From an uncultured delta proteobacterium (GTDB lineage: Bacteria; Myxococcota; Myxococcia; SLRQ01), in NCBI GenBank assembly GCA_963727485.1, contig CAVSGM010000001.1, forward strand, positions 800,001 to 864,000: 64,000 nt of DNA, in the 5' to 3' direction. The translations under genes and the position numbers were made by a program. The notes beneath the pieces are model-generated. The model searched no databases. It saw only the letters and a list, made by a program, of their open reading frames with translations, and was not told where the DNA came from. Shown one piece after another: positions 48,220 through 58,836 of this stretch. The number at the start of each line of letters is the position of its first letter. The stretch's first letter is position 1.

Positions 48220-48334
48220 GCTCTAGAGCCTACACCGGGACGCCGGTCCGGGGGTGCCGGGCCCCGGACGCACCACGGCCCGCGCCGAGCGGGCTCGGGC
48301 GCGGGCCGGGGGTGCTGCAGGGGCAGCCCCGGGT

Positions 48335-50452
48335 CTACCAGACGGTGCAGGCGTTCTTCGGGGCCATCTTGGTGCCCACGGCGCAGTGGAACGCCTGGGC
48401 GAAGGCCGGCTGATCGAGAGGGCCCCGTCGACGCGGAACCGCGGCGCCGAGTGGGGGTCGAGCTTGGTGAGCAGGGCGGCGAGCTGCGGCCGCACCTTGG
48501 AGCACCAGGCCTGGCCCACGCCCAGGAAGAACTGCTGGTCGGGGGTGAAGCCGTCGGCGACCTTCTCCACCTTGTCGCCCGCGGTGAGGTCACGGTAGGC
48601 GCGGAAGGCCATCTTGACCCCACCGATGTCGGCGATGTTCTCACCGAGGGTCAGCTTGCCGTTGAGGTGCACGCCCTTGACCGGCGAGTACTGGGAGTAC
48701 TGGTTCACCACGCACTCTGTCTTGGCCTTGAACTGCTTGGCCGCCGCCGGGGTCCACCAGTTGGCGAGGTTGCCCTTGCCGTCGAACTTGGCGCCCTGGT
48801 CGTCGAAGCCGTGGGTGAACTCGTGGCCCACCACCATGCCCATGCCGCCGAGGTTCACCGGCACCGCGTGCTTCACGCTGTAGAAGGGCGGCTGGAGGAT
48901 GCCGGCGGGGAAGACCACCTCGTTGAGCTGCTGGTCGTAGTAGGCGTTGACCGTGGGAGGCGTCATGTACCACTCCTCCCGGTTCACCGGCTTGCCCACC
49001 TTGGCGAGCTCGTAGTTCAGCCGCCACTTGGCGTAGGCCATGACATCGTGGGCGAAGTCGGTGCGGCTGACCTTGTAGTCGTAGTGCTTCCACTTGGAGG
49101 GGTAGCCGATCTTGTAGCCGACCATGGACAGCTTCTTGTGGGCCGCGGCGGTGGTCGCCTTGTCCATCCACCCCAGGGTGTCGAGGTTCTGGTCGAAGGC
49201 GTGGGAGATGGCGTGGACCAGCTTCTGTGCGGCCGCCTTGGACTGGCCGGAGAACTTCTCCTGGACGTAGATCTTGCCCAGGATGTCCCCGAGGGCGTGA
49301 TCGGTGGAGGCCACGCACCGCTTCCACCGGGCGCTGGAGCTTCTTCTGGCCGGTGATGGCCTGGCGGAAGGCGAAGTTCTCGTCGATGAACTTCTGGGGC
49401 AGGGCGTTGTGGCCGGCCGCCGCCGAGATGATGTGCCACTCGAAGTAGGCGTGCCAGGTGGCGGGCTTGGTCTTCTTCATGATGGGCGCGAGGCCCTTGA
49501 AGAAGTCGGGGACGCTGACGTTGAGGTCCTCGAGGTCGGCGAGGCCCATGGTCTTGAAGTAGCGCTTCCAGGGGAAGCTCGAGTCCATGGCCACCAGGTC
49601 CTTGACCGGCACCCGGTGGTAGGTGGCCTTGGGATCCCGGCGCTCGACCCGGCCCATGGAGATCTTGGCCAGCGCGGTCTCGAGCTTCATCACCCGCGCG
49701 GTGTTCTTGGCGGCGGCCTTCTTCTTCTGGCCGGCGAGCTCGAACATCTTCTCCACGTGGGCCTGGTAGAGGTCGCGGATGTGCTTCGAGCGGGGATCGT
49801 CCTTGAGGTAGTAGTCCTTGTCGGGGAGCCCGAGGCCACCCTGATCCACGTCGGCGATGACCTGGGTGGCGTCCTTGGCGTCCTGCATCGAGTCGGTGCC
49901 GAAGAGCACCCACACCTGGTGCTGGTGGAGGTCGGTGATCGCCCGGGCCAGGGTCTTGTGGCCCCGGACCCGGCGCGCCACCTTCAGCAGGGGCTCGATG
50001 CCCTTGAGGCCCATCTTGTCGATGGCCTTGGTGTCCATGCAGGCGGCGTAGTAGTCGCCGATCTTCTTCTTGCCCGCGTCGTCACCGGGGTTCTTGGCGG
50101 CGTCCTCGAGGATTTGGTGGAGGGTCTGGATGTTCCGCTCGTGGATGACGCTGAAGCTGCGCGACCACATCGACCGGTCCGCGGGGATCTCGGTCTTCTT
50201 CAGCCAGCCACCGCAGGCGTACTGGTAGAAGTCGCTGCAGGGGTCCGCGGTCTTGTCCATGGCCGTGGGGTCGAGGCCGACGTCGGCGAGCGACACCTTC
50301 TCGATCTCGGGGCCGGCGGGCTTGGGCGCCGGCTTGGCCTTTTCGGCCTGGGCGGGCTTGGCGGCGGGCTTGGGGGCCGCGGCGGGGGTCGAGGTCTTGC
50401 ACCCGGCCACCAGGACCAGGGCAAGGGCGAGGGCAAGGGAGCGCGTCTGCAT
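48335..50452 (-). CDS. M13 metalloendopeptidase (neprilysin/PepO-like) lipoprotein; apparent frameshifts at about 49331 and 48413
   Basis: Lipobox VAGC; DPCSDFYQYACGGW, QGGLGLPD, KIGYP, VNAYY, GHEFTHGFDDQG (HExxH), GENIAD, DPHS; restored C-terminus FAQAFHC..CTVW. Confidence 0.92.
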
Positions 50453-50587
50453 GGCCTACCTCCGTGATTGGGGCGCGGAAGCTACCACAGGCCCCCGGTG
50501 GCGCCTACCCGCCTGGGTCAACCTGCACCGGGGCGCTAAAGCCCCACCCCGGGTGGCCGATGGGAGGCGTCGAAGGACACCCGTGAC

Positions 50588-52324
50588 ATGGCGACGGCAA
50601 CCCAGGCAACCCAGGCAGGACAGGCACAGATCATCCCCCTGAAGGGGCGGGCAGGCCCCTCGGTGCCCGGTGGCGACCCATCCCGGGCGCCGACGGACAC
50701 CGACGCGGAGCTCAACCTCCGCATCCTCTGGTCCCTGGCGCAGTGGCTCCGCGATCACCGGGGGCAGGCCGCCCTGCGCCGGGCCGCCGAGGCCGGGGGC
50801 ATCGCCCCCGAGGACCTCGACGGCAAGAGCCGCTGGGCCTCGGTGGCGCAGGTGGACGCCTTCTTCGCCGCGGCCCGGGAGACCATGCCCGACGACGCCA
50901 CCTTCGCCCGGGCCTGTGCCTGGCGCATGGCCGAGGGCCTCGGGCCCTTCCGCCACCTCCTCTGGGCGATGAGCCCCCGGGCGGTCTACGGCCAGGGCGC
51001 GAGGTCGATGCGCCTCATCTCCCGGGTGAGCCGCTACGAGCTCGCCGAGGAGCGCGAGGGCCTGGCGGTCTGGCGCTACCTGACCGACCGGCCTGAGAGC
51101 CGCCTGATCTGCCTCTCGCGCCTCGCCCAGATGAAGATGCTCCCCACCCTCTGGGGGATGCCCGAGGCCCGGGTGGAGGAGACCGCCTGCGTCGCCCACG
51201 GGGACGGCCACTGCGAGTACCGCATCCACTACTACGCCGCCTGGCGCTGGCTCCCCGGGGGGCTGGGCTTCCTGGCTGGGCTCCTCGCCGCGGCCGCGGC
51301 CACCGGCCTGGGGGTCGCCGCCATGCCCCTGTGGGTGTCGCTGCCCCTCCTGGGCGCCGCCACCGGGTTCCTGGTGGAGCTGCGCCGGATCAACCGGATG
51401 AACCTGGGCCTGGGCGCGGAGATGCAGGAGGCCCTCCTGGAGATCGCCCGGGACGACGCCGAGGCCCGCAGCGAGCTCCTCGCTCTCCAGCAGCGCCAGC
51501 AGGCGTGGACCCGGGTCCTCGAGGCCCAGGTCGCCGAGCGCACCGCGATGCTCCAGCGGATGGTCGACAAGATCCAGCGCATCCGCACCGAGCGCGAGGC
51601 CACCCTCCGGGGCTTCTCCCACGACCTGCGCAATCCCCTGGCGGTGCTCCGCGCCGGCACCGGCCTCCTCGCCGAGAACGCCGAGGTCCTCGGCGAGGAC
51701 GGCCCGGAGCTGGTCGCCGACATGGAGGCCTCGGTCGACCGGATGGAGCGGATGCTTCGGGAGGCCATGGACGTCGCCGAGGGCCGGGGCCGCCTGCTCC
51801 ACCTGGTCCCCGAGCGCCTGGTCGTCGCCGAGCTCCCCGAGCAGCTGCGCCGCCGGCTCCAGGCGCTGGTCCTGGGCCGGGACATCCGGGTCACCGCCTT
51901 CGCCACCCGGGAGGCCCCGGAGGCCGTCGAGACCGATCCCCTCCTCTTCGACCGGGTCGTCGACAACCTGCTCACCAACGCCGCCAAGTACACCGAGCGC
52001 GGGAGCATCGTGGTCGAGGTCGGTGGCCGCCCCGGTGCCCTCACCCTCAAGGTCTCCGACACCGGCCGGGGCATCGCCGACGAGGCCCTCCACCGCATCT
52101 TCCAGGCCGGCGGCTCCACCGAGCGCGCCCCCGGGAGCTGGGGAGTGGGGCTCTCGGTGGTCGTCGATCTCCTGGCCCAGGTCGGCGGCCACCTCGAGGT
52201 GATGTCCCGCCCCGGGGTGGGCACGACCTTCTGGGTCCACATCCCCGAGCGCCTCGATCCCACGGTCGCCTCCGACGACCCCATCGACCAGGTGGTCACC
52301 ATCCGCAGGAACGACACCCCATGA
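50588..52324 (+). CDS. Sensor histidine kinase with N-terminal HNOB/V4R-like domain and two TM helices
   Basis: EETACVAHGDGHCEYRI (V4R-type Cys motif); SHDLRNPL (H-box), NLLTNAAKYT, VSDTGRGI, GVGLS, GVGTTF. Confidence 0.88.
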   Translation: MATATQATQAGQAQIIPLKGRAGPSVPGGDPSRAPTDTDAELNLRILWSLAQWLRDHRGQAALRRAAEAGGIAPEDLDGKSRWASVAQVDAFFAAARETMPDDATFARACAWRMAEGLGPFRHLLWAMSPRAVYGQGARSMRLISRVSRYELAEEREGLAVWRYLTDRPESRLICLSRLAQMKMLPTLWGMPEARVEETACVAHGDGHCEYRIHYYAAWRWLPGGLGFLAGLLAAAAATGLGVAAMPLWVSLPLLGAATGFLVELRRINRMNLGLGAEMQEALLEIARDDAEARSELLALQQRQQAWTRVLEAQVAERTAMLQRMVDKIQRIRTEREATLRGFSHDLRNPLAVLRAGTGLLAENAEVLGEDGPELVADMEASVDRMERMLREAMDVAEGRGRLLHLVPERLVVAELPEQLRRRLQALVLGRDIRVTAFATREAPEAVETDPLLFDRVVDNLLTNAAKYTERGSIVVEVGGRPGALTLKVSDTGRGIADEALHRIFQAGGSTERAPGSWGVGLSVVVDLLAQVGGHLEVMSRPGVGTTFWVHIPERLDPTVASDDPIDQVVTIRRNDTP

Positions 52325-54084
52325 CGACTGCCCTCCGGGTCTCCAAGCCCGCCCCCGCCTCCGCCCCCGAACGGGCGGTGGATCTCTTTCTGCGCTACCT
52401 CAAGGCCGAGGGCGTGCGCGTGGTCTTCGGCATCCCCGGCGGCCTGCTCCACCCCTTCTTCGAGGAGGCGGAGCACGACCCCGAGCTCACCCTGGTGGTG
52501 CCCAAGCACGAGGAGGGCGCGGCGTTCATGGCCGACGGCTACGCCCGGGCCGGCGGCGGGCTCGCGGTCTGCGCCGGTACCGCCGGTCCCGGATCCACCA
52601 ACCTCCTCACCGGTGTGAGCTGTGCCTTCGCCGACGGGGTGCCGATGGTGGTCGTCACCGGGCAGGCCGCCAGCCGCGCCATGGGCCGCGGCGCCGCCCA
52701 GGAGACCACCCGGGAGGACATCGACATCGTGGAGATGTTCCGGCCGGTGACCAAGTACTCGGCGATGGTCACCGACGTCGCGGACCTCGGCCGGCACCTG
52801 CGCCGGGCGCTCCGCCGCGCCCTGACCGGGCGGAGGGGGCCGGTGCACCTCAACCTCCCGGTCGACCTCTGGGAGCAGCCGGTCCCCGAGGACGACTGGC
52901 GCGATCCGGCGACCTGGCGCCCGGAGACGCACCTCTTCGACCGCGCGGCGGTGTCCCGGGCCGCCGACGCCCTCCTCGAGGCCGAGCACCCGGTGATCCT
53001 CTGCGGCTCCGGGGTCGCCGCCGCCGGCGCCGAGGGTCACCTCCTGGCCCTCGCCGAGCTCCTCGACGCCCGGGTGGCGACCACGCCGAGGGCCAAGGGG
53101 GTGTTCCCCGAGGACCACCCGGCGTCCCTGGGCGTCCTGGGCTTCGCCGGCCACCGCGCCGCCCGGGAGGTCCTCCTCGGCGACGAGGTCGACGTCCTCC
53201 TCACCGCCGGCGCGTCGCTGAACGAGACCACCACCTTCAACTGGCACCCGGGGCTGGGGCCGGCCCGGGCCCTGCTCCAGCTCGACATCGACCCGGACCG
53301 CATCGGCCGCAACTACCCCGTCGACGTGCCCCTGGTCGGCGACGCCCAGACGGTGTTGGTGGAGCTCGTCTACCACCTCCACCGGGCGATCCGCGACGGG
53401 CGAAGGCCGATGGGCCGATGGGGCGACGCCCCGCCGGTGCCCGGCGGTGAGGCGCGCTACGCCGAGCCCGAGCTGCGGGGCTCGTCGGCCCGGCCCCTCG
53501 CCCCCCAGCGGTGGCGGGTGGACCTGATGGAGGTGCTCCCCGACGACGCCCTGGTGTTCTCGGACATCGGCGGCCACATGCTCTTCAACCTCCACGACCT
53601 GGAGATCCGCTCGGGCCAGCGCTTCCTCATAAACCTCGGGTTCGGGTCCATGGGTCACGGGACGGTGGCGCCCATCGGCGCCGCGCTGGCCGACCCCGAC
53701 CGGCCGGTGGTGGCCATCGTCGGCGACGGCTGCTTCACCATGAACGGGATGGAGCTGCTGACCGCCGCCGAGCACCGCCTCCCGGTGGTGTGGCTGGTGG
53801 AGCACAACGACATGCACGGGATCACCTGGCACGGGAGCAAGCGGGTGGGGCGCAAGCGCCCCATGGAGTCGGTGCGCTACCGCCGACACCTCGACGTCTC
53901 GGGGATCGCCCGGGCCATGGGCCTCACCACCGAGGTGGTCGACGGTCCCGGGCAGCTCCAGGCGGTGCTCCCGGGGCTCCTCGCCGCGCGGGCCCCGGCG
54001 GTGGTCGAGATCCGGGTCGACGGCACCATCGAGCCCCCCCTGGGGGACCGGGCGAAGACCATCGCCGGGTTCACCGAGCGATGA
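52321..54084 (+). CDS. ThDP-dependent enzyme (acetolactate synthase / acyloin synthase superfamily)
   Basis: VFGIPGG, KHEEGAAFMADGYAR (catalytic Glu), AGPGSTN, GPVHLNLPVD, FGSMG, GDGCFTMNGMEL..HN; ATGA overlap with kinase. Confidence 0.92.
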   Translation: MTTALRVSKPAPASAPERAVDLFLRYLKAEGVRVVFGIPGGLLHPFFEEAEHDPELTLVVPKHEEGAAFMADGYARAGGGLAVCAGTAGPGSTNLLTGVSCAFADGVPMVVVTGQAASRAMGRGAAQETTREDIDIVEMFRPVTKYSAMVTDVADLGRHLRRALRRALTGRRGPVHLNLPVDLWEQPVPEDDWRDPATWRPETHLFDRAAVSRAADALLEAEHPVILCGSGVAAAGAEGHLLALAELLDARVATTPRAKGVFPEDHPASLGVLGFAGHRAAREVLLGDEVDVLLTAGASLNETTTFNWHPGLGPARALLQLDIDPDRIGRNYPVDVPLVGDAQTVLVELVYHLHRAIRDGRRPMGRWGDAPPVPGGEARYAEPELRGSSARPLAPQRWRVDLMEVLPDDALVFSDIGGHMLFNLHDLEIRSGQRFLINLGFGSMGHGTVAPIGAALADPDRPVVAIVGDGCFTMNGMELLTAAEHRLPVVWLVEHNDMHGITWHGSKRVGRKRPMESVRYRRHLDVSGIARAMGLTTEVVDGPGQLQAVLPGLLAARAPAVVEIRVDGTIEPPLGDRAKTIAGFTER

Positions 54085-54800
54085 CCGCCCGGGCACAGGT
54101 CCCATCGCCGGCCGCCGACACCGACGACCACGGGCCCGTGGAGGACACCCCCTGGCCGACGCGCCTCGAGGCCCACGTGGTCACCCCGGGCCCGGCGCCG
54201 CGGATCCACGGCTACGACGTCCACGACGACCTCGCCCGGCACTACGGCTTCGGGGAGGTGGTCTTGCTCACCCTCACCGGTCAGCCCCCGAGCGTGGGGG
54301 TGGGGCGGGTGTTCGAGGCGGCGCTCGTCGACCTTGCCCCGGTGACGGTCGCCGAGGCCCCGGCCCACGCCGCCGTCCTCGCCCGCCTCTGCGACGCCGA
54401 CCCCGCGGGGACGGTGGCCACCGGCGCCATCGGCCTCGCCGAGCAGGCGCGCGAGCGCATCACCCGCCACCGGGCGGCCCTCGAGGCCCTGCGCGCCGGG
54501 CGCCCCTGGGCGGAGTGCGACGGACGCTGCGAGGGGGCAGATGCCTTGGCCGAGGCGCGTATCGCCGAGCGGCTCCGGGAGACGGGCCTCGTCGCCCCGC
54601 GCCTCGCCGGCCCGGTGTGCGCCGAGGCGGAGGGCCTGGCGACGCTGGCGGCCCTGGGCCTCACCGAGCCCTGGCAGCTCCTCGCGGCCCTGGTGGTGGC
54701 GCGCCTGCCGGCGGTGGCCGCCGAGGCCCAGGCGGTGACCCCGAGGTCGTTCCCGAGCTACCCCATGAACCTCCCGCCCTTCGTCTACGAGGTGCCCTGA
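54081..54800 (+). CDS. Citrate-synthase / citryl-CoA-lyase-fold protein (degenerate)
   Basis: WPTRL..RIHGYDVHDDL..GFGEVVLLTLTGQPP..FEAALV resembles the citryl-CoA lyase N-terminus; C-terminal LVVARLPAVAAEA; ATGA overlap. Confidence 0.6.
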   Translation: MTARAQVPSPAADTDDHGPVEDTPWPTRLEAHVVTPGPAPRIHGYDVHDDLARHYGFGEVVLLTLTGQPPSVGVGRVFEAALVDLAPVTVAEAPAHAAVLARLCDADPAGTVATGAIGLAEQARERITRHRAALEALRAGRPWAECDGRCEGADALAEARIAERLRETGLVAPRLAGPVCAEAEGLATLAALGLTEPWQLLAALVVARLPAVAAEAQAVTPRSFPSYPMNLPPFVYEVP

Positions 54801-55621
54801 TGGAGCCCGTCCGTACCCGCGTCGCCCACGCGGGCTGGCACGACCACCGTCTGCGCCACCGCCGGCTCTTCGCCGAGGTCCTCGGGCGCGCCGACCTCAC
54901 CCGCCTCAGCGTCCTCGCCCTCACCGGCCGCGACCTCGACCCCGACGCAGCCGCCATGGTCGACGACCTCGCGGTGGTCACCAGCGTCTCCGAGCCGCGG
55001 ATCTGGCCCCTGAAGGCGGCGCGCCTGGTGGCCTCCTACGGGGGGACCATGGCGGGGTTTGCCGCCGGGTGCCTCTGGGCCGACCGCGCCCAGGTGGGCT
55101 TCTGGACCTGCGGCCTCGCCGCCGAGAGCCTGGTGGCGCTCGCCGCCGAGCTCGGTGACGGCGCCGCGGATCCGGTGCGGGTCGCCGACGCGGTGCGCCG
55201 ACGGCTCGAGCGCGGCCAGGTCATCGCGGGCTTTGGCGTGCCCTTCCGGGACGAGGACGAGCGGATGGTGGCCCTGCGCCGCCAGGTGCGCGCCCGCGGC
55301 CGCGACGGTGGCCGCCACTGGACCCTCCTCGGGCACCTCGCCGAGACCATGCGCGCCGAGCGGCACCTGGGCGCCAACATCGGGCTGGGGCTCGCCGCGG
55401 TGCTCCTCGACCTCGGCTTCGACGCCGGCGAGATCAGCGTCCTCGCCGCCCAGCTCGGCCACCACACCTTCCTCGCCAACGCCCACGAGGGCGCCATCCA
55501 GGGCGCCCCCGCCCTGCGCCGGCTCCCGGACGAGGCGGTGGCCTACGTGGGCGCCGGGCCCCGGCCCTCACCGCGGGCGGCGGCAGGGGACGGGGTCGCC
55601 GGTCCCGACCTCAGTCCTTGA
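54800..55621 (+). CDS. Citrate-synthase-fold protein (degenerate)
   Basis: VRTRV..LALTGR, EPRIWP, IAGFGVPFRDEDER (cf. GFGHRVY..DPR), ANIG..AAVLLDLGF (cf. PNVD); TGATG overlap. Confidence 0.65.
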   Translation: MEPVRTRVAHAGWHDHRLRHRRLFAEVLGRADLTRLSVLALTGRDLDPDAAAMVDDLAVVTSVSEPRIWPLKAARLVASYGGTMAGFAAGCLWADRAQVGFWTCGLAAESLVALAAELGDGAADPVRVADAVRRRLERGQVIAGFGVPFRDEDERMVALRRQVRARGRDGGRHWTLLGHLAETMRAERHLGANIGLGLAAVLLDLGFDAGEISVLAAQLGHHTFLANAHEGAIQGAPALRRLPDEAVAYVGAGPRPSPRAAAGDGVAGPDLSP

Positions 55622-56058: not shown

Positions 56059-56093
56059 CTGTCCAAGGCGTATCCCACGCGATGGAGGTCGCC

Positions 56094-56513
56094 ATGAACG
56101 CCCAAGACGGGACCTGGTTCAACGAGCACGGCTCGAAGATGACCGTCGAGATTGCGGCCGACGGGCAGGTGACCGGCACCTTCGAGAGCGCCGTGGGCCT
56201 CGCCGCCCCCGGCGAGCGCTTCCCGGTGACCGGCTACGCCACCGGCGACCTGGTCGCCTTCACCGTGAACTTCGGGCGGTACCTCTCCCTGACCACCTGG
56301 GTCGGCTACCGGGCCTTCGAGGACGACGGCGAGGAGGTGCTGCGGACCACCTGGCAGATGGCGGTGTCGCCCCCGGCGCAGAAGATCGCCGAGCGGTGGA
56401 AGGGCACCTGGACCGGGTCGAACCTCTTCCGGCGCCACCCGCGCACCGAGACCCGCCTGCCCCACACCCGCGAGGCGGCGACCCGTCCGGTGGCGCCGCC
56501 GCTGGCCTTCTAG
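56094..56513 (+). CDS. Avidin/streptavidin-family protein, no signal peptide
   Basis: GTWFNEHGS, GQVTGTFESAVG, FTVNF, SLTTWVG, TTWQM, WKGTWTGSNLF align with streptavidin GTWYNQLGS/TGTYESAVG/SATTWSG/WKSTLVGHDTF; GGAGG RBS. Confidence 0.9.
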   Translation: MNAQDGTWFNEHGSKMTVEIAADGQVTGTFESAVGLAAPGERFPVTGYATGDLVAFTVNFGRYLSLTTWVGYRAFEDDGEEVLRTTWQMAVSPPAQKIAERWKGTWTGSNLFRRHPRTETRLPHTREAATRPVAPPLAF

Positions 56514-56531
56514 GGGAGCCCGACCGGGTGC

Positions 56532-57536
56532 CTAGGCCGCGCGCTGGGGCGCCAGGGGCGCCTCGGCCTCGCCGAAGCCCACCATCCGGTTCAGGTCCGG
56601 GTCCCAGAGCCGCAGCCGCAAACAGGCGGCGATGTCGCGGACCCGCCAGGAGGTGCGCCCGGGGTTCTGGAGCTCGGGGACGGCCGCCATCGCCTCGGGG
56701 AGCCGGTAGAAGGGGATCCGGTGGTCGAGGTGGTGGACGTGGTGGTAGCCGATGTTCCCGGTGAGCCAGTGCATCACCGGGCTCATGTCGAACATGCTCG
56801 AGCACTTGAGCGCCGCGTGGACGTAGTCCCAGTCGCGCCGGCCGCGGAGCTCGGTCGCCGGGAAGTTGTGCTGGGCGTAGAAGAGGTAGGCGCCCAGCCC
56901 GGTGGCGATGTAGATGGGCAGGGCGAGGCCCAGGAGGGCCGACTGCCAGCCGAGGAGCGCGGTGAGGACCCCGAGGCCGGTGAAGTGGAGCACCAGCGCC
57001 AGGGGGCCGGACCAGTGCGCGTGGTTGCGGCGCCAGGCCGAGATGCACATCCCACCCATGAAGATGGTGAAGTAGCCGAAGAAGATGGTCAGCGGGTGGC
57101 GGGCCAGGGCGTAGGCCCGGCGCTGCCCGGGCTTCAGGCCGCGCCACATGCCCACGCTGACGATGGGAAACGAGCCGATGGCCGAGCCGACGATCTTGGA
57201 GTTGTTCTTGTGGTGGTAGTTGTGGGTCTCGCGCCAGATGGAGCGGGGCGAGAGCACGAGGTAGCCGACCCCGCTCATGATGAAGCCCCCGACCCGGGAG
57301 CCGCGCAGCACCGCCCCGTGGAGGTGGTCGTGGTAGAAGATGAAGGTGCGGACGGTGATCAGGCCCTGGAACACCGAGGCCGCCACCCGCAGGGGCAGGG
57401 GCAGGCCGGGCCAGATCGCCACGGTGAAGGCGGCGCCCAGGAGGACCAGGGTGACCAGGAGCAGGCGCCAGGTCCTGCCCCGATCCTCGATCGCGTAGGG
57501 TTTGGTCGCTCGGACCAGCTCCGCTCCGTCTCTCAT
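56532..57536 (-). CDS. Membrane fatty acid desaturase (Des/DesA-like)
   Basis: Three His boxes HDHLH, HNYHH, HHVHH; LFYAQHNF; RIPFYRL. Confidence 0.92.
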   Translation of the reverse strand: MRDGAELVRATKPYAIEDRGRTWRLLLVTLVLLGAAFTVAIWPGLPLPLRVAASVFQGLITVRTFIFYHDHLHGAVLRGSRVGGFIMSGVGYLVLSPRSIWRETHNYHHKNNSKIVGSAIGSFPIVSVGMWRGLKPGQRRAYALARHPLTIFFGYFTIFMGGMCISAWRRNHAHWSGPLALVLHFTGLGVLTALLGWQSALLGLALPIYIATGLGAYLFYAQHNFPATELRGRRDWDYVHAALKCSSMFDMSPVMHWLTGNIGYHHVHHLDHRIPFYRLPEAMAAVPELQNPGRTSWRVRDIAACLRLRLWDPDLNRMVGFGEAEAPLAPQRAA

Positions 57537-57709
57537 CCCAATCTCCTCTGGTGGCCAGCGCCGCTCGGCGCCGGTCAGATGGCGCCGGGAGCCTAGCACG
57601 CCGGTCCAGGGGTTCGTCAGCCGCTTCTCAACCTTTCCCTGGGTGTGGTAAGGCGGACCTCCCACTCGAGCAACACCGGGCCGGGCGCCCGGGCCGGAAG
57701 GATCTGCCC

Positions 57710-58558
57710 ATGTCGACGCAAGCCGAAGTCGAGGTCTCCTACGACGTCTCCAACGAGTTCTTCCGCCTCTGGCTGGACGAGCGGATGAACTACACCTGTG
57801 GCGTCTACGAGGGCACCGACAACCTCGAGGAGGCCCAGGTCAAGAAGCTCGACTGGATCCACGACGCGGCCCACCTCTCCCCCGAGAAGCGGCACCTGGA
57901 CATCGGCTGCGGCTGGGGCGCCTGCATCGAGCACATGACCACCGCCAAGGGCGTGAAGAGCTCCACGGGGATCACCCTGAGCCGCGCCCAGTACGAGGAG
58001 ATCGAGCGGCGCAAGATCCCCGGGGTCAGCGCCAAGGTGGTCTCCTACGCGGACTTCGAGCCCGAGCACAAGTTCGACGCCGTCACCTCCATCTGCATGA
58101 TGGAGCACATCGCCACCCCCGAGCAGGCCCGCCGCGGCGAGCACATCGCCCTCTACCGCGACTACTTCCGCCGGGCCTGGGAGTGGACCACCCCCGGGAG
58201 CTACTTCGGCCTCCAGACCATCCTCCGCAACCGGGTGCCCCGGAACCGCGACGACCTCAAGGACCTCGGCTGGGTCACCTACGAGATCTTCCCGGGCGGC
58301 CTGTCGCTGCGCCTCGAGGACATCGTGATGTCCGTGAACCCCTACTGGGAGATCCTGGAGATCAAGACCCGCCGCGAGGACTACGGGAAGACCACCGCCG
58401 AGTGGCTGCGCCGGCTGCGCCTCAACGAGGCCACCATCCGCGAGAAGTGGGGCGACAAGGTCTTCGACGACTACGACCGCTACCTGCGCACCTGCGTGCG
58501 GTCCTTCGACATGCACTACCAGTCCCTCGCCCAGTACAGCCTGCGGCGCATCGACTAG
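57710..58558 (+). CDS. Cyclopropane-fatty-acyl / mycolic-acid-type SAM methyltransferase (short form)
   Basis: YDVSNEFFRLWLD..NYTCG, LEEAQ..K, LDIGCGWG, GITLS..Q, SICMMEH, IFPGG, YGKT..W. Confidence 0.9.
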   Translation: MSTQAEVEVSYDVSNEFFRLWLDERMNYTCGVYEGTDNLEEAQVKKLDWIHDAAHLSPEKRHLDIGCGWGACIEHMTTAKGVKSSTGITLSRAQYEEIERRKIPGVSAKVVSYADFEPEHKFDAVTSICMMEHIATPEQARRGEHIALYRDYFRRAWEWTTPGSYFGLQTILRNRVPRNRDDLKDLGWVTYEIFPGGLSLRLEDIVMSVNPYWEILEIKTRREDYGKTTAEWLRRLRLNEATIREKWGDKVFDDYDRYLRTCVRSFDMHYQSLAQYSLRRID

Positions 58559-58578
58559 ACCCCTTTCGGAGAACACCG

Positions 58579-58836
58579 ATGAACGACGCCGAGATCCTGG
58601 ACCTGCTCAAGAAGGCCCTCCTCGAGGTCGCCCCCGGGCGCGCCAAGGACTTCGAGAACATCAGCGTGGACACCACCATCGAGGCGTTGGACCTCGACTC
58701 GGTCTCCACCATGGAGATGGTCGGCTTCCTCGAGGAGCAGACCGACAAGACCTTCCCCGACGAGGACCTGTCCCGGGTGACCAAGCTCGGCGACCTGGCG
58801 ACCCTCATCCGCGGCGGTCGGGTCGGCGTGGCCTGA
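58579..58836 (+). CDS. Acyl carrier protein
   Basis: Acidic 85-aa protein with LDLDSVSTMEMV phosphopantetheine Ser motif; GGAGA RBS. Confidence 0.88.
   Translation: MNDAEILDLLKKALLEVAPGRAKDFENISVDTTIEALDLDSVSTMEMVGFLEEQTDKTFPDEDLSRVTKLGDLATLIRGGRVGVA

Follow-up and report, generated by a model that had tools for sequence, protein, structure and literature searches.

A myxobacterial operon joining a histidine kinase to a furanolide-type carboligase and two citryl-CoA-lyase-fold proteins: a candidate chemical-signalling system

A unit of four genes, coding in turn for a histidine kinase, a thiamine diphosphate (ThDP)-dependent enzyme and two proteins assigned, the first less firmly, to the citryl-CoA-lyase fold (CS1 and CS2), is found in an uncultured myxobacterial genome and is presented here as a candidate new system of bacterial chemical signalling. 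The DNA analysed is a stretch of 64,000 nucleotides (contig CAVSGM010000001.1 of assembly GCA_963727485.1, positions 800,001 to 864,000; hereafter the window). Its contig, C1, belongs to a genome of 5.55 Mb that is 93% complete and whose relatives are labelled Myxococcota. We put the probability that the operon makes an acyloin-derived butenolide and senses it with its own kinase at about one half. The ThDP enzyme would convert two 2-oxo acids to an acyloin-type product, CS1 and CS2 would jointly introduce an acyl-CoA unit and bring about closure to a butenolide (furanolide-like) ring, and the kinase would bind the product in a predicted H-NOX-like pocket and signal to a response regulator encoded elsewhere. 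Judged by its relatives, the carboligation of two 2-oxo acids is highly probable. Acyl-CoA-dependent lactone closure, for which an enzyme swap and the fold argue, is somewhat favoured, and the same can be said of the sensing of product or intermediate, to which linkage in two operon types points.

Results

Conserved linkage of the four genes

The genes are carried by four same-strand open reading frames with no internal stop, and their junctions read ATGA, ATGA and TGATG, as the sequence-only reading from which this work started had described. A profile of CS2 was searched against a species-level genome collection and gave 72 loci; a scan of the genome contigs with the single protein had found none, and it was the alignment-based rerun that delivered them. 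CS1 lies immediately 5′ of CS2 in all 72. A ThDP gene is present in 67, the other five having none in the fetched DNA, and by identity to the enzyme of the window these fall into 51 at 60% or more (clade A), three at 53–58% and 13 at 30–33%. Linkage of the kinase had been named beforehand as a test, and it is conserved within Myxococcota, in dozens of uncultured myxobacteria: a kinase with the same sensor occurs in 47 of the 51 clade-A loci, and the remaining four end at a contig edge. The same sensor occurs in none of the 16 loci with a more distant ThDP enzyme. The gene order is kept in 40 of the 47 kinase-bearing loci, while in the seven rearranged ones a kinase-ThDP block and a CS1-CS2 block still lie near each other. 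Among the 40 relatives of the same order, the start/stop overlaps recur at 28/40, 28/40 and 40/40 junctions, by a count based on whichever in-frame start comes first near the stop, a few of which may be chance; such recurrence is more than chance would give. Mean identities across these 40 loci are 40% for the sensor, 67% for the ThDP enzyme, 42% for CS1 and 41% for CS2. Distance correlations among the four genes (rho 0.16–0.57, 39 loci) fit shared descent, and co-evolution was set aside as a conclusion from them.

A metagenome search anchored on the ThDP enzyme, from which the best 80 of 127 loci were used, gave a similar picture. The sensor is present in 45 of the 47 loci having 2 kb of upstream sequence, and the 66 loci with 1 kb downstream divide into 57 with CS genes, three with a FabH-like gene and six with neither. 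The genome and metagenome sets overlap, hold near-duplicates and are kin, so these counts describe the linkage and do not test it. The distribution is patchy, since the ThDP enzyme was detected in 13 of the 401 genomes of a phylum sample. CS2 had no match in plasmids or in viral contigs; the ThDP enzyme had matches at only 31–36% in the former and a single match at 32% in the latter.

Interchange of the CS pair with a FabH-like enzyme

The place of the CS pair can be taken by another enzyme. In six loci (L173/L298, L291, L296, L186, L201 and L211) a clade-A ThDP gene, its product 62–70% identical to the one here, stands beside a FabH-like gene, with no CS pair in the fetched DNA. Locus L201 runs kinase-ThDP-FabH-like, and in L186 and L211 these three genes recur in another arrangement. 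In genome G120 the clade-A gene (product 62% identical) is followed directly by one for a FabH-like protein of 354 amino acids, and CS1 was not found in this genome, which is 96% complete; the genome of L296 carries a CS pair on another contig. CS genes and a FabH-like gene occur together in none of the 80 metagenome loci (65 with CS genes, three FabH-like). The four-gene unit itself has no FabH-like gene, and a search of its genome for the ThDP-linked FabH-like subfamily came back empty at E 1e-45, FabH-like genes at only 24–29% being present elsewhere in it. Near the CS-bearing loci L042 and L147 there are FabH genes too, but these resemble ordinary FabH and were not counted. In a quick tree of the ThDP enzymes (53 rows, clade A thinned to 25), four FabH-linked enzymes are scattered within clade A, with 4 changes; the well-supported branches force only one change, so the tree does not establish repeated swapping. 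Such a direct interchange inside one ThDP-kinase clade is new.

The ThDP plus FabH-like layout is that of cybE and cybF, which are adjacent in Plesiocystis and Enhygromyxa according to the portion of PMC8777810 available to us. In the accessible part of PMC12395478, CybE couples two 2-oxo acids, and CybF carries out an O-acylation, a Morita-Baylis-Hillman step and a hydride shift. The comparison with furanolide pathways made in the sequence-only reading is thereby strengthened. We suppose that the CS pair stands in for CybF, because its fold binds acyl-CoA and an acyloin hydroxyl could close a lactone. The citrate-synthase fold in general binds acyl-CoA and adds it to ketones.

The FabH-like subfamily leads to a sister operon. 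It matches 39 of the 401 genomes, a count that includes one unpublished genome (G196), and in 24 of the 30 loci read a ThDP gene lies no more than 1.5 kb away. A kinase follows in all six wider regions (L307–L312), which thus read ThDP, FabH-like, kinase (580–1044 amino acids as called), with a receiver-like gene next in three. The N-termini of 18 sister kinases match the sensor of the window by profile-profile comparison (95%, E 3e-8, 173 columns), on which the homology rests; of 30 sister kinases, the direct search with the sensor profile reached only 2. The sensors being homologous, this sensor fold is linked to this chemistry in two types of operon.

The kinase and its sensor domain

The kinase is composed of an N-terminal sensor, a predicted membrane hairpin (about residues 225–265), HisKA and HATPase_c, and has no receiver domain. 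HisKA and HATPase_c both score above the Pfam cut-off, and the H, N, G1, F and G2 boxes of class I histidine kinases are all present; His345 is found in 53 of 56 aligned kinases and N460/N464/D491/G493/G521 in all 56. Hydropathy shows two hydrophobic segments after the sensor domain, which makes a cytoplasmic location likely for sensor and kinase alike. Such a location would fit a ligand that permeates the membrane, or an intermediate made inside the cell.

The sequence-only reading had called the protein a V4R-type histidine kinase, of which the kinase part stands and the V4R part does not. The Pfam V4R match of the sensor, at 19.5 bits, falls short of the cut-off of 31, and in its predicted fold the sensor is nearer to H-NOX and VirS. 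In a wide structure search the model gave Z 13.0 with the H-NOX of S. oneidensis (rmsd 3.4, 174 aligned), tied with ligand-bound VirS and the H-NOX of K. algicida (Z 12.8 each), while the V4R-type structures PoxR (Z 7.6) and DmpR (Z 7.4) scored lower. A Cys/Glu zinc motif is common to the sensor and V4R domains of the XylR/PoxR/DmpR type. H-NOX structures also fill the Foldseek list. A search of PDB sequences with the sensor profile gave no credible match, and among the 47 sensors aligned, two loci having been dropped beforehand, the Pfam matches are to AraC N-terminal (24), V4R (5) and HNOB (2). This H-NOX-fold reading of the sensor, with the motif counts below, is new, and the H-NOX/VirS likeness opens a gas or redox reading of the kinase.

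On such a reading the enzymes make a small molecule, but the kinase responds to gas or redox state and does not take the product as its ligand. It would then either control the pathway or belong to the same regulon, and would use haem-NO/O2 in sensors that bear the histidine and zinc-thiol oxidation in those that lack it. The place of H-NOX at the top of the Foldseek list and in the tie for first in the wide search agrees with this, as do the histidine at the haem position in 27 of the 47 sensors and all four haem hallmarks in 18. At the YxSxR site the sensor has Y164-x-T166-x-R168 (Y in 35/47, S/T in 41/47, R/K in 32/47). The zinc-site motif Cys175-Glu198-Cys201-Cys209 is complete in 38/47, its spacing being one residue off Cys139/His161/Cys164/Cys172 of S. 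oneidensis, and the section of PMC7108781 available describes the haem-free H-NOX of V. cholerae as a redox sensor acting through its zinc site. Yet the proximal haem histidine occurs in all 598 H-NOX sequences treated in that section of PMC7108781, and it is missing in 20 of the 47 sensors, including the present one, where Arg142 occupies the position (as placed by helix and register) and residues 138–145 contain no histidine. The invariant columns, Trp83, Arg178 and Gly205, are not haem ligands, ligand-bound VirS ties with H-NOX, and the sister sensors show neither the haem nor the zinc motif in their consensus yet stay linked to the same enzyme type. We consider a gas or redox role unlikely, though it is the strongest of the rival readings.

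Kinases of this kind also occur alone. Three of 15 strong matches in the phylum (genomes G108, G098 and G062) lack a neighbouring ThDP gene, and a clade-A enzyme was not found elsewhere in these genomes either. The solo kinase of G098 has the same flanking genes as the full operon of G068 and so sits at the operon's chromosomal site, as listener-only receptors would. In one large family of the class, 107 of the 172 genomes sampled have a distant relative of the sensor; cultured strains may thus carry a testable version. The genome of the window has a solo paralogue of its own outside the window (C1:29711-31495), 36% identical and beside a magnesium-transporter-like gene, with no enzymes. Two other loci (L168:8445-11279 and L169:8286-11132) encode kinases of about 945 amino acids with a distant sensor that keeps the zinc motif and a methyltransferase-like gene 5′ of them.

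The sequence-only reading had seen no response regulator nearby, in agreement with our count: none of the genome's 131 receiver matches falls in the window, and the receiver domains nearest to the unit lie about 22 kb downstream and 83 kb upstream.

CS1 and CS2

That both proteins have a citrate-synthase fold was proposed earlier and is well shown for CS2, more weakly for CS1. The predicted model of CS2 (pLDDT 92) matches citryl-CoA lyase 6hxp with Z 23.8 (rmsd 5.9, 250 aligned) and a profile E of 3e-16, and Foldseek gives a TM of 0.73 to this fold; the single-sequence search of the PDB with CS2 gave no real match. CS1 is matched by the CS2 profile (76%, E 2e-5) and weakly by citryl-CoA lyase sequences. 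Its homologues form at least 285 clusters at E 1e-30, and in the ESM Atlas it falls with unnamed clusters plus one with 17% citrate-synthase members at 0.88. By these comparisons CS1 appears to be a more diverged paralogue of the citryl-CoA-lyase fold, assigned to it less firmly than CS2.

Compared with 6hxp, CS2 keeps the GxG loop, the arginine of D-x-R, Arg150, Asn193 and two C-terminal arginines. It has D/E-P in place of DH and lacks the Asp of NVD, and GH is changed to G-V/I/T in all 48 homologues aligned. The classical His/His/Asp of citrate synthase and citryl-CoA lyase is thus replaced in 48/48 rows. In human ATP-citrate lyase the equivalent of the NVD aspartate, Asp1026, is essential, either as general base or allosterically, as stated in the part of PMC10115795 available. 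Having lost both histidines and the aspartate, CS2 would need a new mechanism for catalysis. Invariant in the 48 homologues are Arg67, Trp69, Gly144, Gly146, Arg150 and Asp153-Glu154-Arg155. CS1 has a reduced small domain and neither a GxGH nor an NVD motif, and its invariant residues among 57 homologues are His96, Glu215 and Tyr227. In the loop after the DH site, His96 of CS1 and Trp69 of CS2 share one alignment column, and the invariance of both suggests, at the level of alignment, a rebuilt site and not a dead one.

Complex prediction lends weak support to a CS1-CS2 heterodimer. The pair scored 0.43 against 0.00 for the best control, with partner pLDDT of at least 87 and runs agreeing in at least 2% of contacts. 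The mark used is reached by 116 of 157 solved pairs and 2 of 215 mismatched pairs; at 0.60 or under it is reached by only 18 of the solved pairs and by both mismatches. Oligomers of the citrate-synthase fold are already solved, so memory of the predictor may explain the score.

It has also to be considered that the acyloin (alpha-hydroxyketone) itself is the signal and that CS1/CS2 act as a non-catalytic, acyl-CoA-binding regulator or scaffold of the ThDP enzyme. The loss of the classical catalytic residues from the pair would fit, as would the six metagenome loci whose ThDP enzyme has no second enzyme, and an allosteric CoA-binding role is argued for the same fold in ATP-citrate lyase in the available part of PMC10115795. 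Against it stand the invariant polar residues in the loop that replaces DH (His96 in 57/57, Arg67 and Trp69 in 48/48) and the fact that the pair alternates with a FabH-like enzyme whose catalytic Cys is retained. This explanation seems to us quite unlikely.

The ThDP enzyme

Against PDB sequences the ThDP enzyme scores 434 bits with BbmA, 349 with CsmA and 229 with E. coli AHAS I. Its Glu64 and GDG...N motif (468–496) are intact. The NCBIfam model of ScyA (cut-off 1020 bits) is outside the best 25 of 56 families, of which the lowest listed scores 233 bits. In the quick tree, clade A together with the intermediate and FabH-linked rows is supported at 99%, and IlvB lies outside on a long branch. 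By sequence the enzyme is closest to the furanolide-type carboligases BbmA and CsmA, not to IlvB or ScyA, and it is counted as a CybE-type carboligase through its scores with BbmA and CsmA, not with CybE itself. In the accessible text of PMC12395478, CsmA and 'BpmA' (a print variant of BbmA) are named as CybE homologues that make alpha-hydroxy-beta-keto acids. The earlier comparisons with ScyA and with CqsA/LqsA are reduced to analogy.

A catabolic or detoxifying unit, in which the kinase senses an outside compound that a ThDP lyase and an acyl-CoA lyase then cleave, is improbable. The closest fold of CS2 is indeed a lyase, VirS, PoxR and DmpR-type domains sense outside small molecules, and three of the CS-pair loci with no ThDP gene adjoin thiolase-like and acyl-CoA dehydrogenase-like genes. 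However, the four genes have no conserved companion among transporters, dehydrogenases or CoA ligases, and the ThDP enzyme is far nearer to BbmA and CsmA than to 2-hydroxyacyl-CoA lyases, with which it scores about 170 bits or less.

An ordinary acetolactate synthase with incidental neighbours, as the best NCBIfam match (the biosynthetic large subunit, TIGR00118) and the database names of its homologues would have it, is very improbable given a score of 368 bits under a cut-off of 538, a clade that excludes IlvB, the conserved linkage and the ilv searches that follow. The sequence-only reading had noted that ilvN and ilvC are missing nearby, and this extends to the genome, as far as its 93% completeness allows: ilvD and ilvH have no match in it, and for ilvC only weak Rossmann-level matches were found (28 bits, against 205–234 for real ones). 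Such a test of the operon genomes is new. The gene ilvD was not found in 9 of 10 of them nor ilvH in 4 of 5, and the tenth, G116, has a separate true ilvB (718 bits) near ilvD/ilvH/ilvC. An ordinary acetolactate synthase, like a missing kinase linkage, had been named beforehand as grounds for refutation, and by neither of these two checks was the sequence-only reading refuted.

Position of the unit and its neighbours

The features of the unit are collected in Table 1. GAAGGA stands about 9 bases 5′ of the kinase ATG, and neither a sigma-70 consensus nor a terminator was found. The upstream boundary is a divergent M13/PepO-like peptidase gene (window 48223-50452, minus strand), broken across two frames with assembly indels as the probable cause; the downstream boundary is a convergent dodecin gene that overlaps the stop codon of CS2. 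Further on (window 56082-58836) an avidin-family gene is followed by genes for a fatty-acid desaturase, a cyclopropane-synthase-like methyltransferase and an acyl carrier protein, a stretch that is not a recurrent neighbour of the unit in relatives.

Table 1. Coordinates of the four-gene unit and its parts in the window.
Feature	Position	Strand	Size and basis
Histidine kinase gene	50588..52324	+	578 aa; alternative start = GTG at 50663
Sensor domain, predicted H-NOX/VirS-type fold	50693..51262	+	residues 36-225; model pLDDT 90
ThDP-dependent carboligase of the BbmA/CsmA (CybE-like) kind, by sequence	52321..54084	+	587 aa; Pfam, PDB matches
CS1, putative diverged citryl-CoA-lyase-fold protein	54081..54800	+	239 aa; weak citryl-CoA lyase matches
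CS2, citryl-CoA-lyase-fold protein	54800..55621	+	273 aa; profile, Foldseek, Z score
Presumed promoter region, 135-bp gap between divergent peptidase gene and kinase gene	50453..50587	.	sequence

Several neighbourhoods in relatives are recorded here. In 12–13 related loci, many labelled Nannocystaceae (L122, L123, L130, L132, L135, L141-L144, L146, L153, L155), the unit lies amid type VI secretion genes, with an FHA gene on one side and ClpV-like, TssG, TssF, gp25-like and Hcp genes on the other; this is probably one lineage, and type VI secretion is a possible output of the kinase. In 11 CS-pair loci with a distant ThDP clade or none (L086, L087, L090, L091, L096, L098, L106, L107, L111, L116, L121), an unnamed family of about 170 amino acids replaces the kinase; it has no real Pfam match, and two distant copies occur in the genome of the window. 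L049 and L050 have a distant-clade ThDP gene, CS1 and CS2, then directly a class I/II aminotransferase, a possible source of 2-oxo acids. A gene with a Pfam ATLF metallopeptidase domain match (L050:8954-9847), in another genome, is unrelated to the unit.

Discussion

To our knowledge, few self-made small-molecule signals with known receptors have been described for myxobacteria. If the make-and-sense reading is true, the operon offers a signal together with its candidate receptor, and three small enzymes and one kinase make a cheap test. It would also bring new chemistry to the citrate-synthase fold and a natural organic ligand to the H-NOX fold. Should the reading hold for the enzymes only, a new route to compounds like the furanolides would still be gained. 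More tentatively, and with less than even odds, a whole family of myxobacterial butenolide cell-to-cell signalling may be envisaged, in which a CybE-type enzyme works with an interchangeable ring-closing enzyme, either a repurposed citryl-CoA-lyase heterodimer or a CybF-like protein, the receptors are kinases in which the H-NOX fold has turned into a pocket for an organic ligand, and solo kinases are the listeners in other myxobacteria. A precedent for signalling by a furanolide is nostoclide, described as a density-dependent mediator in Nostoc in the portion of PMC9324945 available.

A number of points weigh against the make-and-sense reading. Product, ligand, transcript and output are all predictions. 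Within the portion of PMC9324945 consulted, nostoclide does not autoinduce its own cluster. The haem-type histidine and the full haem hallmarks persist in part of the sensors, as counted above, and the catalytic triad of the citrate-synthase fold is gone from every CS2 aligned. Thirteen loci combine CS genes with the distant ThDP clade (30–33%) and have no such kinase, and the six metagenome loci with neither second enzyme must be added. A conserved response regulator near the unit was sought and none found, only 10 of 51 loci having a receiver domain at a distance of 1.5 kb or less; among the relatives, the unit is not regularly accompanied by a CoA ligase, an exporter or a cognate response regulator. 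Solo kinases could equally have a job of their own, and the FabH-like protein is called CybF-like by gene layout, not by comparison with CybF itself.

Comparison with known systems

No description of the four-gene set was found in the literature, which was searched mainly as open-access texts, and on the features compared the unit falls outside CybE/CybF, citryl-CoA lyase, haem H-NOX, V4R and IlvB. The nearest case is that of the furanolide core synthases CybE/CybF (cyanobacterin, nostoclide, maculalactone and, as proposed, the myxobacterial enhygrolides). These share with the unit a CybE-type ThDP enzyme, whose nearest solved relatives are BbmA and CsmA (PDB 8x3x, 8x3z). The unit differs in having two citryl-CoA-lyase-fold proteins in the place of CybF, no CoA ligase or ammonia lyase, and a translationally coupled kinase. 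The word kinase does not occur in the main texts of PMC8777810, PMC13288894 and PMC9324945 on furanolides, and no receptor appeared in the furanolide literature examined.

With citryl-CoA lyase (H. thermophilus, 6hxp) and the CCL module of ATP-citrate lyase, CS2 shares fold and length. It departs from them in DP/EP for DH, in GV for GH (His in 0/48) and in the NVD site, and the unit has two diverged paralogues that are always adjacent. With the H-NOX/HnoK systems of S. oneidensis and V. cholerae and the VirS-type AraC N-terminal ligand domains, the sensor has in common the predicted fold, the zinc-site spacing, a partial YxS/TxR motif and the coupling to a histidine kinase. Unlike them, it is fused to its kinase through a predicted membrane hairpin, is linked to biosynthetic enzymes and lacks, here as in other members of the alignment, the proximal histidine.

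CqsA and LqsA are pyridoxal phosphate enzymes, and the sensors CqsS and LqsS have multi-pass membrane domains; no protein of the unit belongs to those families. The logic is nevertheless the same, an alpha-hydroxyketone synthase being paired with a sensor kinase in CqsA/CqsS and LqsA/LqsS (PMC3376566). By analogy, the unit would combine the working of a furanolide pathway with that of a synthase-receptor pair.

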